Positions 37,227-58,045 of a DNA stretch of 64,000 nucleotides are shown here, piece by piece. The stretch lies in sequence record MF402939; one strand, written 5' to 3'. A program made the position numbers and the translations under genes. How positions within the stretch are numbered: position 1 is the stretch's first letter; each line of letters begins with the position of its first letter. This DNA is from Escherichia phage OSYSP. Under the pieces are notes generated by a model. The model had not been told where the DNA came from, ran no database searches, and was given only the letters and a program-made list of their open reading frames with translations.

Positions 37227-37322
37227 ATTAATAAAACTCCATTAAAGGGATTAAAAACGTTTGTTATTGGCAAATATTGCCAAATATAACGCCTTGAATA
37301 ATAGGCGTTATAATTTGCAACA

Positions 37323-37520
37323 TTAATTTAAAGGCATAAGGCTAGAACTAACACCACAAGCAACGGCGGCAATAAAACAAATCAGACCTAAACGCTTTGC
37401 CAATTTAGACTTACGTTTAAAATAATATGAGTCTAAATCATTTTGAAAATAAGCGAATAATAACGAGGCCGCCATAATAAATAAGCCTAGAATGAGGGAT
37501 TCAGTAGGGTAAAAGATCAT
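37323..37520 (-). CDS. Small membrane protein (65 aa)
   Basis: GGAG RBS; two hydrophobic helices. Confidence 0.45.
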   Translation of the reverse strand: MIFYPTESLILGLFIMAASLLFAYFQNDLDSYYFKRKSKLAKRLGLICFIAAVACGVSSSLMPLN

Positions 37521-37576
37521 TTTAAAACTCCAGTCAAAGGGAAATTATAGTGGGGAATATTCCCCACTAATTAAAT

Positions 37577-54645: not shown

Positions 54646-55325
54646 ATTGATCTACCTAAAGATCTCTGTTGTGGAGAACAGAGCTTTGCTAAATATTCCT
54701 TGAACTGTTCAGAATCAGCTGTATCTACCGGATTATCTTTCCAAGCAATACCAATGTACCCAGCATAGATATTTTTTAGATTGAAGTATGGACAAGTGTA
54801 TATGTAATTAAAAGTAACGTTTTTAAACGCAGGTATATTTAACCCCATATATTTATTTACTCTTACACTTAAATCCGATGCGTAGTTAAAGCCCTCTAAA
54901 TGACGTCTGTATAATTCAGACGTTTTATTTACCGCTTTATCGGCCAAGTCAGCCCTATCTAATTGCGCATTACTTTCCCATGCAATAATATTGGAATAAT
55001 CATTGATAGCATCTGGTTTATACTTGACTACAAAAACAGCATCTGCACCCGTCTGAGAGAAGAGAACCATGCTCTTTTCCCCCGCCACATTAGGGAAGTT
55101 ATCTATCCTCTGGGTTTGTAAATCCTGTAAAACTGCAGACGTGGAAAAGGTTTTTAAGAATGACATCACTTCACTAGTATTACTAACAAATAAGAAAATA
55201 ATGACAGCAACTAAGATAGTTAGCAGACGTTTAAGAAGCGATGCTGGGTCTTTCGCTTCTTGGAGCAGTACTGTTAATAATTGTAAGAACTTTTCCAATT
55301 TGTAACCTCCTCTAACCAGTACCAT
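54642..55325 (-). CDS. Holin (putative)
   Basis: 227 aa with one strong TM helix LLTILVAVIIFLFV; ATGA overlap with the endolysin gene. Confidence 0.6.
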   Translation of the reverse strand: MVLVRGGYKLEKFLQLLTVLLQEAKDPASLLKRLLTILVAVIIFLFVSNTSEVMSFLKTFSTSAVLQDLQTQRIDNFPNVAGEKSMVLFSQTGADAVFVVKYKPDAINDYSNIIAWESNAQLDRADLADKAVNKTSELYRRHLEGFNYASDLSVRVNKYMGLNIPAFKNVTFNYIYTCPYFNLKNIYAGYIGIAWKDNPVDTADSEQFKEYLAKLCSPQQRSLGRSI

Positions 55326-55555
55326 TATACTAATTTTGGAGGAAAATTACAATGTGTTTTTAAAGATCACTTCTGGAGCATAAAATTTTGTCGTTGTCAA
55401 GAAGAATTTTAGATAAAAGAAAAGCCAGGGTCGTTAAACCCTGGCTTAAAATTACTTACTCTTCGTTGTGCTCCTCGGATTGAGGTAACTGGGCTTTATT
55501 ATATTGCTCAGATCGATATTTTGCCAAGATTTCAATACGCTTATGGATTTCTTTG

Positions 55556-56056
55556 CTATCTAGATAGATATTTTTTGTTGTCTTTTACCATTTCGTCGAT
55601 TTCGTCTATAGAGAAGAACGGATAGTAGACATCTAGCATCATATCTTCTACGAACTTGTTGTAAGATTCATAGGCTTTCTTGATTTCTTGACCCTTCTCA
55701 CAGAATCCGCCAGAGAACGTGTGTCCCATTAGCGTAGCATGTGGATGTACTACCCATCCATGACAGGATAGGAAAATTGTGCAGTAAGCAGAAGCACTAG
55801 GACCGAGCAGGTGTCCAATAACCGTTCCACGACAGTTAGCGATTAAGTTAGATAGTTGTGCAGCAGTATCAACGTAACCACCAGGCCCATTAATCATCAG
55901 ATTAATTTCATCATCTTCACCAGCCTGCATCAGTATCATGGATAGGTCACGATACTCATCCGGTGAGCCTAATTCTTCATCAAAGAAAAAGGTATATTCG
56001 TTAGATTGGCGAACAGTGTGAAACAGGTTAGTCTTTTCTTCTTTCTTATTAGTCAT
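55556..56056 (-). CDS. ClpP-like serine protease (S14 family-like)
   Basis: INGPGG (cf. ClpP INSPGG), GPSASAY (catalytic Ser context), VVHPH (His context). Confidence 0.6.
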   Translation of the reverse strand: MTNKKEEKTNLFHTVRQSNEYTFFFDEELGSPDEYRDLSMILMQAGEDDEINLMINGPGGYVDTAAQLSNLIANCRGTVIGHLLGPSASAYCTIFLSCHGWVVHPHATLMGHTFSGGFCEKGQEIKKAYESYNKFVEDMMLDVYYPFFSIDEIDEMVKDNKKYLSR

Positions 56057-56068
56057 AGTGATCCTTAA

Positions 56069-56821
56069 TTATCCAACTAGTGGTTCTAGCTCTAAGTCAC
56101 AGAAGTGGTACACATCGGTACGAAGTGCATCAAGTCCGTTGAAGGTATTCTCAAATTTATGAGAAATGTATTTTTCAGGAATACCGCTTTCAGACGGATG
56201 ATCTGTCTCGATGCGATACTTATTAGTAATACCAGATTCAACCTTAATAAGCATGGAATCCATATCTAGAGTATTGGTTTCCATGATTAGCTCTCCCTCA
56301 TTGGGGAAACGCACATCGGTAACGATTGCGACGTCTGGGTCGTCTTTATCGATGGATTGCTCCAGAATTATGAGCCAAATGCGTTCATGCACCAGCTGCC
56401 TTCCTAACTCAGTACCTACAAGCTGTAGCATTTTTCTTGGGGAGATAAACACGCTATACAGCGCATCATCAGCTTGCCCAATTAACTGCTGAGGATCAAG
56501 GTATTTTCCTTCAAAAATCGGCCAAACGTACGAGAAGTCCTCAAACTTATCGATACCATACTTAAACCATACGTCTCTAGCTCGCTCCAATTGAGATTGT
56601 GTGACCGTAAACCATTGGTCAATCTCTTTTCCCCTGCGCTCTCCCAGAAACTCTGGAGTTACCCCGAGGATTACGGATGCAAGTTCGTAAACGGGTTTAG
56701 CAAAACTGTAACGACGGGATAAACACGTTGGGAACGTGTCATTACACCAGTCAATCATTAATTCTGCAACGGTATCTTTTCCCGCACCAGCCTCACCATG
56801 TAAACCGACTAATACTGACAT
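56069..56821 (-). CDS. Deoxynucleoside monophosphate kinase
   Basis: 250 aa; P-loop GLHGEAGAGKDT at N-terminus; same size as T5 dNMP kinase. Confidence 0.7.
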   Translation of the reverse strand: MSVLVGLHGEAGAGKDTVAELMIDWCNDTFPTCLSRRYSFAKPVYELASVILGVTPEFLGERRGKEIDQWFTVTQSQLERARDVWFKYGIDKFEDFSYVWPIFEGKYLDPQQLIGQADDALYSVFISPRKMLQLVGTELGRQLVHERIWLIILEQSIDKDDPDVAIVTDVRFPNEGELIMETNTLDMDSMLIKVESGITNKYRIETDHPSESGIPEKYISHKFENTFNGLDALRTDVYHFCDLELEPLVG

Positions 56822-57174
56822 TAATCTTTCCTATTTGTAATGGGTGGATAGTAAACTAAGCAACGTTTTTCTTGTAAATCTTGACGATAGAAGCAAACCA
56901 TACCAGTCAGTCGTGAAATGTAAGAGTAAACTGCTTCCTCGCATTTTGCTTTTGCATTCCAATCTTTGTAAGGTACAACAACTACTACGCCATCTTCGCC
57001 ATTTGTAGCTAATTTCTTTTCGAATTTGAAATCAAAGCTACACGGCTGAAGTCCTTTAGGCCAGTCAACATGGGCTTGCTTTAACTCATGTGAAGGCTCT
57101 GGTTTTATTTCTTCTGCACAGCCTGTGATTGTGATTGCGGCTGCGAGCAGTACTCCAAGTTTCCAGTTAAACAT
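56821..57174 (-). CDS. Outer-membrane lipoprotein, candidate o-spanin
   Basis: Signal peptide with lipobox ITGC; 117 aa; 5' end overlaps a TM/coiled-coil protein gene. Confidence 0.5.
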   Translation of the reverse strand: MFNWKLGVLLAAAITITGCAEEIKPEPSHELKQAHVDWPKGLQPCSFDFKFEKKLATNGEDGVVVVVPYKDWNAKAKCEEAVYSYISRLTGMVCFYRQDLQEKRCLVYYPPITNRKD

Positions 57175-57548
57175 GCTAATCTTTCCTCGAACTCCTTACT
57201 CTGCTTTTTAGCAATTAATGTAACCAATCCAGGCTTTGCAGCTATAATGTCTTGACGACTAAGTGCTTTATCAAGCTGACTAATTTTCTTGTCTAGATCT
57301 GCTTGGGAAACATTATTCATTGTGAAATACTGATTCATACGAGTTTCACGAAGTTCACTCTCAGCTTTCACATTATTAAGGGAAGTCTCTAGGGACGTAA
57401 TCTTTTTAGTAGCTACTGCAAGATCACCTGCTAGAGTCTCAACCTTATTTACTAAGTGATAAGCACCGAATCCGATACCTATCGCAAGACCAGCTCCCAG
57501 GATATACATCTTATTATCCCAAACTAAGTCTACAAACCATTTCCACAT
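57105..57548 (-). CDS. TM plus coiled-coil protein, candidate i-spanin
   Basis: N-terminal TM helix YILGAGLAIGIGFGAY then long coiled coil. Confidence 0.5.
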   Translation of the reverse strand: MWKWFVDLVWDNKMYILGAGLAIGIGFGAYHLVNKVETLAGDLAVATKKITSLETSLNNVKAESELRETRMNQYFTMNNVSQADLDKKISQLDKALSRQDIIAAKPGLVTLIAKKQSKEFEERLACLTGNLEYCSQPQSQSQAVQKK

Positions 57549-58045
57549 CAGCCTGTACTCGCAAACTCACCGTGGAGTTCTTTGAGTTTGGTATCTCGCC
57601 ATTCTATGGCCTCTTCCAAACTCTTAAGTGTTTTCGAAACTTGCTTACCATGTTTAGTGATTCTTACTTGGTAAGTCCCATTTGTTTTTCTATGAATATT
57701 TTTAACGCCTAAATGGTTATCGCTTCTTACTTTTTGATTACAAGCGTTATCAGATCTTGTAGCAGGTCTTAGATTCTCAAACCTATCATTAGTTGAGTCT
57801 TTATCCTTATGATCAACTATTTCTGGCCATTCTCCAGTATGCCATGCATAGATTAATCTATGTGTACCTATAGCTAGAGAACCATTATATAGCTCAACTA
57901 CTCTATGTCCTGTACTTTGTCTAGATCCTGCTACTGTTCCGGCGAATATCTTATTAAAGTGTTCGTCCCCTTCCCTGGGTTTCCAGATAAGATTACCATC
58001 ATCTCGGTAATCGAACATTCTTCTTAGCTCTTCCTTACTGATCAT
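57548..58045 (-). CDS. HNH homing endonuclease with AP2-like DNA-binding domain
   Basis: HRLIYAWHTGEWPEIVDHKD...NLRPATRSDN (HNH core) followed by NGTYQVRITKHGKQV (AP2-like). Confidence 0.65.
   Translation of the reverse strand: MISKEELRRMFDYRDDGNLIWKPREGDEHFNKIFAGTVAGSRQSTGHRVVELYNGSLAIGTHRLIYAWHTGEWPEIVDHKDKDSTNDRFENLRPATRSDNACNQKVRSDNHLGVKNIHRKTNGTYQVRITKHGKQVSKTLKSLEEAIEWRDTKLKELHGEFASTG

Follow-up and report, generated by a model that had tools for sequence, protein, structure and literature searches.

The closest described counterpart of the gene examined here is T5p041 of phage T5 (AY692264), a 600-nt gene recorded as ‘putative Clp protease', which was named T5.042 in the CRISPRi-ART re-annotation and scored there as ‘Not Fit' (that is, its knockdown had no fitness effect; PMC11879866, supplementary file 16); T5.042 is dispensable in this knockdown screen. 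The orthologue in phage BF23 is ORF45, and traces of the ORF45 Clp protease were reported in purified BF23 virions (PMC10644984). Among bacterial proteins, the points of reference are E. coli ClpP (PDB 3MT6/1TYF; MEROPS S14), the type of enzyme in which the loops of the Clp ATPases (IGF/LGF) dock into a hydrophobic pocket (PMC8182300), and Listeria monocytogenes ClpP1, which is closely paralogous to ClpP (44% identical to the E. coli protein), carries Asn172 in its triad, has a dedicated ClpP2 partner and is active only in the ClpP1/ClpP2 heterocomplex (PMC5361862). Phage head-maturation proteases (NF045542; phrog_1684 and phrog_94) form a further branch of the same superfamily. The literature searched yielded nothing on the function of phage ClpP homologues beyond a remark in the BF23 paper and the T5 knockdown table; T5 gene data are absent from the HIDEN-SEQ preprint, and the Clp-like gene is unmentioned in both papers on phage OSYSP (PMC5646388, PMC11664485).

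The locus was analysed within a stretch of 64,000 nt from Escherichia phage OSYSP (MF402939; ‘the window'). The 166-aa ORF under study is present on the minus strand, which the earlier, sequence-only reading had left unstated, and it contains the INGPGG, GPSAS and HPH motifs that had been attributed to it. The identical 166-aa sequence is deposited as ‘ATP-dependent protease [Escherichia phage OSYSP]' (YP_009791071.1/ASM63008.1), and the DNA of the region is 92–95% identical to that of >400 T5-like phage genomes (Demerecviridae), in which orthologues are labelled either ‘ATP-dependent Clp protease proteolytic subunit' or ‘ATP-dependent protease'. The gene is therefore already known, as the annotated orthologue of T5.042/T5p041 and a member of PHROG 1827 in a known phage family. 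Protein identity to the T5 product is ~96% over residues 1–161, and both genes occupy the same slot between dnk and the holin gene. The OSYSP copy differs from that of T5 by one additional A, with the result that it stops at 166 aa rather than 199 aa. In all likelihood, then, the OSYSP ORF consists of the first 161 codons of the T5-like Clp-like protease gene, frameshifted by this extra A, and the intact protein would be a serine peptidase of the ClpP fold.

Membership in the ClpP superfamily was established at several levels. The 166-aa ORF matched Pfam PF00574 (CLP_protease) with E=1.8e-7 and 31.6 bits, above the gathering score of 20.2, and the repaired 199-aa protein scored 31.4 bits against the same model, on which distant family members reached 47–56 bits. 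It also matched PHROG 1827 (‘ATP-dependent protease') over residues 1–164 with E=3.5e-77, while phmmer against the PDB hit solved ClpP chains directly (best 3q7h, E=2e-4). The ClpP likeness of the ORF is thus far above chance. The description of a phage-encoded ClpP-like protease is therefore right as far as superfamily and fold are concerned, as borne out by Pfam, PHROG 1827, the model of an orthologue and the Foldseek matches of that model (see below).

The length of the ORF is another matter. That it is shorter than bacterial ClpP had been read as a trait of the protein, yet the SP15 orthologue has 199 aa, orthologues are generally 198–199 aa long, and the 90% protein cluster (241 members) consists mostly of proteins of 198–199 aa. 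DNA alignment with SP15 revealed A6 in OSYSP against A5 in SP15, with the frame changing at codon 162 and a stop five codons on, after KYLSR (Table 1). By tblastn, the SP15 protein mapped to two OSYSP frames, namely residues 1–161 in the ORF and residues 162–199 at 55572..55459 with 100% identity, and the tblastn matches of relatives likewise ended at residue 161 of the ORF. Over the downstream 38 codons a single, synonymous nucleotide difference from SP15 was found. The ORF is therefore 166 aa long because one additional A shifts the frame and removes the last 38 codons, and shortness is not a natural trait of the protein.

Table 1. Coordinates of the Clp-like locus in the window, and of the PhoH-associated homologues in other phages.
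Feature	Position	Strand	Description and basis
166-aa ORF, ATG to TAG	55556..56056	minus	T5.042-type Clp-like protease gene up to codon 161, followed by KYLSR out of frame and TAG
Homopolymer with one additional base (frameshift site)	55571..55576		T6 on the plus strand, A6 in the gene; SP15 alignment, A5 in relatives
Rest of the gene in the other frame	55456..55572	minus	Codons 162-199, NIYLDSKEIHKRIEILAKYRSEQYNKAQLPQSEEHNEE, plus TAA (55456-55458); tblastn with the SP15 protein
Ser89 codon	55790..55792	minus	Aligned with catalytic Ser97 of E. coli ClpP (GPSAS/GQAAS); position computed from the ORF start
His112 codon	55721..55723	minus	Aligned with catalytic His122 of E. coli ClpP (MGHTF/MIHQP); position computed from the ORF start
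Asn162 codon, restored frame	55570-55572	minus	Aligned with ClpP Asp171
Intrinsic-terminator-like hairpin	55422..55447	minus	11-bp stem with 6 GC pairs and a T-tail; 8 nt past the restored stop; conserved in SP15
PhoH + Clp-like loci	L003:4198-5720, L004:4241-5621, L037:4432-6477, L038:5313-6465		Non-T5 phages

The longer run was then sought elsewhere. All 20 of the T5-like loci that were fetched and matched the local pattern carried A5. A 41-nt megablast query centred on the run, designed such that every 28-mer seed spans it, returned 0 phage records in its A6 version; because this null is ambiguous alone (BLAST applies a low-complexity filter), the A5 version was run as a control, and it returned 185 GenBank phage records, T5 among them. 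Moreover, an exact-pattern scan for the A6 sequence found none in IMG/VR, the metagenome set or the GTDB genomes. Within the collections searched, the A6 allele is confined to the OSYSP genome. The apparent ‘short ClpP' is hence the frameshifted form of a gene that carries an annotation in >400 T5-like genomes, and neither a miniaturised ClpP nor a decoy is warranted as a conclusion. Separately, shortened versions of 136–163 aa were noted in other T5-like records (P0010, P0015, P0016, P0172 and BFVD A0A482N5C1); truncated or mis-started annotations of the Clp-like gene recur in public data.

The catalytic residues were located in two alignments, the first of which combined the repaired protein, 15 homologues and E. 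coli ClpP (a sequence identical to that of PDB 3mt6), and the second of which covered 169 family sequences; 150 of these were diverse representatives, taken from the 546 (E<=1e-30) that an exhaustive profile search had returned. The column of Ser97 is Ser in 169 of 169 sequences, and that of His122 is His in 168 with one gap. In the column of Asp171, Asp (139 sequences) is accompanied by Glu (17), Asn (8), Thr (3), Ser (1) and one gap, and all eight of the Asn sequences belong to the T5 clade. Ser89, His112 and Asn162 are the same in T5 and in the restored OSYSP frame. Codon 162 overlaps the homopolymer run, so that in the OSYSP ORF as written Lys takes this place and the stop comes after four more codons; on this alignment the third triad position falls exactly at the frameshift and hence is lost in the OSYSP product.

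The motifs previously matched by eye to the ClpP active site stood up in part. INGPGG aligns with INSPGG of ClpP, and GPSAS aligns with GQAAS, the context of the catalytic Ser, but HPH aligns with L114-P115-N116 of ClpP and the catalytic His is instead His112 in MGHTF. The alignment for the triad that had been proposed as a check gave a mixed answer: Ser and His are conserved, whereas the Asp is replaced by Asn162 in the T5 clade and by Lys in the OSYSP ORF. Reserve about calling the product an active protease was therefore well placed, as the truncated allele is without the third triad residue and even the intact T5-clade orthologues are Ser-His-Asn. Asn at the third position alone is no proof of inactivity, since Listeria ClpP1 is active with Asn172.

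Structural evidence for the fold was drawn from a full-length orthologue rather than from the truncated 166-aa product. The AlphaFold2 model of P0001, a full-length orthologue with 96% identity, has a mean pLDDT of 81.5 (in most of the core, close to 90 or higher), and in a Foldseek search all of its top 50 PDB matches were ClpP (probability 1.0; TM 0.6–0.7); many phage ‘Clp protease' models were matched as well. The ClpP order of strands and helices is kept in the model, including the long handle helix (residues 123–144) and the helices that follow. Past residue 162, the model has a short strand (163–165) and a long helix (167–189). As judged from this model, the truncated product lacks the β-strand after residue 162 and the long C-terminal helix. 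The encoded OSYSP product would thus be deprived of the residue at the position of ClpP Asp171, of the next β-strand and of the long C-terminal helix. At the other end of P0001, residues 1–16 have pLDDT <50, and the 19 residues ahead of the first strand are helix-free, in a monomer model that cannot show a pore; in the alignment, this N-terminal region is unconserved and varies in length.

Despite the shared fold, the PGG motif and the aligned catalytic Ser and His, the protein departs from E. coli ClpP in several respects. Identity between the two is 16%. On the NCBIfam clpP equivalog model TIGR00493 the phage protein scored 15.2 bits against a cut-off of 308.6, and on other ClpP subfamily models 12–21 bits against cut-offs of 228–347, that is, far below the level of assignment. 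In the model of the orthologue, its N-terminus appears short and unconserved, without helix A or axial loops, and its C-terminal helix appears elongated. The residues of E. coli ClpP that form the pocket for the IGF loops of the ATPase, which we take to be Y60, Y62, F82, I90, M92, F112, L114 and L189, correspond in the alignment to N, M, N, H, L, V, H and A, respectively, so that the pocket residues are replaced, half of them by polar ones. Across the family, polar or charged residues predominate at these positions, each of which is anchored beside well-aligned motifs in an alignment at 16% identity. On the residue list assumed here, the canonical docking pocket for ClpX or ClpA is probably not conserved, and judged by sequence the phage protein is probably not a subunit of ClpXP or ClpAP. 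The routine label ‘ATP-dependent Clp protease proteolytic subunit' is thus probably misleading. The likeness to Listeria ClpP1 is restricted in a similar manner: the T5-clade protein shares its Asn at the third triad position, yet it is a distant homologue, and Listeria ClpP1 is a close ClpP paralogue with a partner of its own.

Whether the extra A is a genuine mutation or an error of the record was weighed next. If the extra A in the A5 run is real, which we take to be slightly the likelier case, the OSYSP copy of this dispensable gene would most probably be inactive; if the base arose in sequencing or assembly of the deposited genome, the true phage would have A5 and would make a normal 199-aa protein. 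The latter is a serious contender, to which we assign somewhat less than an even chance. One added base in a homopolymer is a classic type of error, Ion Torrent data were part of the OSYSP project and Sanger gap-filling was used too (PMC5646388, PMC11664485), and the A6 allele is unique across every collection searched. The downstream stretch shows no decay, its 38 codons being identical in protein to SP15 with a single synonymous nucleotide change, and the Clp-like gene is under strong purifying selection. On the other hand, the OSYSP genome was assembled de novo by SPAdes from Illumina MiSeq 2x250 reads (PMC5646388), with which 6-nt runs are rarely miscalled; a very recent mutation would likewise leave the downstream codons undecayed; and, as the gene is dispensable in T5, a real loss that occurred recently in a laboratory stock is plausible. 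Nor is the record error-ridden, as a split between frames was seen in only 3 of the 61 genes that were compared with SP15. Between a real recent loss and a record error, the balance tips slightly towards the former.

Pervasive assembly errors, considered as a separate possibility, were rejected on the same count of 3 in 61 genes. Most of the other 1-nt indels relative to SP15 are located outside the compared genes or are paired inside divergent stretches. Two further genes were found in two frames each against SP15, namely a homologue of the A1-type ‘DNA transfer protein' and an adjoining small membrane-protein gene (37230–37570, minus strand), which are homologues of SP15 gp004/gp005. In the A1 homologue, residues 1–29 are in a different frame from residues 28–584, with several 1-nt and 5-nt indels nearby. 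This split could represent real N-terminal divergence, use of another start codon or more frameshifts.

The selective regime bears on what the gene did before the extra A. Among orthologues, the median dN/dS is 0.05, and the repaired OSYSP gene differs from its orthologues by 28–40 synonymous changes and, for most relatives, by 7–10 non-synonymous ones. The low dN/dS and the few non-synonymous changes indicate that the gene was constrained, and functional, until very recently. Strong purifying selection (dN/dS ~0.05) maintains a ClpP-fold peptidase in Demerecviridae and many other large lytic phages, which poses a puzzle at the level of the family: a conserved peptidase that is nonetheless dispensable in the laboratory and that, as far as its sequence indicates, is without ClpX/ClpA features.

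For the intact protein, the favoured explanation is that of a ClpP-fold, MEROPS S14-type serine peptidase with conserved Ser89 and His112 and, in the T5 clade, Asn as the third residue. It would presumably assemble into ClpP-like rings, and would do so without canonical docking of ClpX or ClpA, because neither the residues of the hydrophobic pocket nor the N-terminal axial loops appear to be conserved. It might act as a stand-alone peptidase or depend on another partner, and would do so in early or middle infection. The traces found in BF23 virions are not accounted for by this explanation.

As to partners, gene order and analogy raise a further idea, which we regard as unlikely: the intact Ser-His-Asn protein of the T5 clade might form a partner-dependent ring (with host ClpP, or with a PhoH-like ATPase elsewhere) or might have a role in the timing of lysis. 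The idea of lysis timing derives from the conserved place of the gene directly upstream of the T-type holin gene. For PhoH, a homologue of the Clp-like gene was found downstream of a PhoH-like ATPase gene in Rheinheimera phage Barba6A, Pseudomonas phage Kremar and two IMG/VR contigs; the two genes directly adjoin in three of these four loci and are ~750 nt apart in the other (L037), with an overlap of 8 nt in Kremar. These loci suggest a recurrent pair of PhoH and Clp-like genes. Elsewhere in unrelated phages, the homologue is located among replication genes. No PhoH-like ORF was detected at E<1e-5 among all ORFs of the 64,000-nt OSYSP window. Were the host ClpP ring the partner, the phage would be able to retune host Clp proteolysis; were a PhoH-like ATPase the partner in other phages, the two would constitute an ATPase-protease pair of a new kind.

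Much less support remains for the proposal, put forward in the sequence-only reading, that the short protein itself works as a true ClpP-like subunit in mixed complexes with host ClpP, or as a decoy for the Clp machinery. The catalytic Ser and His are indeed conserved, and the dependence of the Asn-bearing Listeria ClpP1 on its heterocomplex offers an analogy; such an arrangement is conceivable for the intact T5-clade protein, and the analogy lends nothing to the truncated form. The short form is a frameshift allele of one genome, with no conserved design, and is without a core strand and helix of the ClpP fold. Furthermore, identity to host ClpP is low, the pocket and the N-terminal elements for engaging ClpX or ClpA appear not to be conserved, and interaction data were not found in the literature searched. 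We consider this proposal very unlikely, and prefer that of a frameshifted copy of an otherwise intact family member.

A still weaker case can be made for a ClpP-related head-maturation (prohead) protease. Some records give the orthologue a head-maturation label, the protein leaves traces in BF23 virions, and profile similarity is detectable, with weaker PHROG matches to ‘head maturation protease' (phrog_1684, E=7e-20; phrog_94, E=1e-12) and a match to NCBIfam Clp_rel_HeadMat (NF045542; E=2.5e-10). However, the NF045542 score of 40.6 bits is far under the cut-off of 120, and the gene is located in the early region, in a non-structural context between the dNMP kinase and holin genes and not near the portal or capsid genes. 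T5-like phages, moreover, have a separate prohead protease, which in BF23 is ORF164 and processes the major capsid protein (PMC10644984), and knockdown of T5.042 is without fitness cost, unlike what would be expected of an essential maturation protease. A role in head maturation is thus extremely improbable. Finally, programmed frameshifting or transcriptional slippage at the A6 run, giving both a 166-aa and a 199-aa product, is barely credible. A-runs can allow slippage at a low level, and the frame past the run remains intact, but every relative has A5 and one continuous ORF, the two-frame design is not conserved, A6 is short for efficient slippage, and repair of the frame requires a +1/-2 shift.

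The genomic neighbourhood fits the restored, full-length gene of the preferred reading. The order in T5-like phages is spanin(s), dNMP kinase, Clp-like gene, terminator plus promoter, T-type holin and endolysin, and it is kept in contigs where the protein is only 39–47% identical, even where the type of endolysin differs (as seen across SP15, T5 and divergent contigs). The terminator-like hairpin past the restored stop (Table 1) marks, by its sequence, what is taken as the true 3′ end of the Clp-like gene and of a spanin-dnk-clp transcription unit. The lysis cassette is thus in two parts, with the dNMP kinase and Clp-like genes standing between the spanins and the holin and endolysin genes.

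Several features around the gene were also noted. A near-consensus σ70-like promoter (TTGGCA-18-TATAAT; 11 of 12 matches) is located at 55498–55527 on the minus strand, within the last 38 codons and ~50 nt upstream of the terminator; it may have arisen by chance, or may be an internal promoter reading towards the holin gene. At 55299, just upstream of the holin TTG start that is annotated in SP15 and T5, a 1-nt T insertion was found, through which the OSYSP holin ORF reaches an ATG at 55325 and becomes 227 aa long against 218 aa. A second promoter-like site (TTGTAA-17-TATAAT; 55324–55352) overlaps this ATG, for which reason the TTG at 55298 is probably the true holin start.

On the other side, the dNMP kinase gene (56069–56821) shows 80% protein identity to SP15, against 93–99% for the flanking genes, with many compensating indels from 56117 to 56486; this segment is mosaic, and probably recombinant, and ends near the start of the Clp-like gene. 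Beyond it, the two overlapping ORFs at 56821–57548 are spanins in the annotation of relatives, and that at 56821–57174 has a lipoprotein-like signal ending in ITGC. An HNH homing-endonuclease gene follows at 57548–58045, while the second HNH gene of SP15, located there between the thioredoxin gene and gp038, is missing in OSYSP at the 53238/53241 junction; this difference is the presence/absence variation typical of homing endonucleases.
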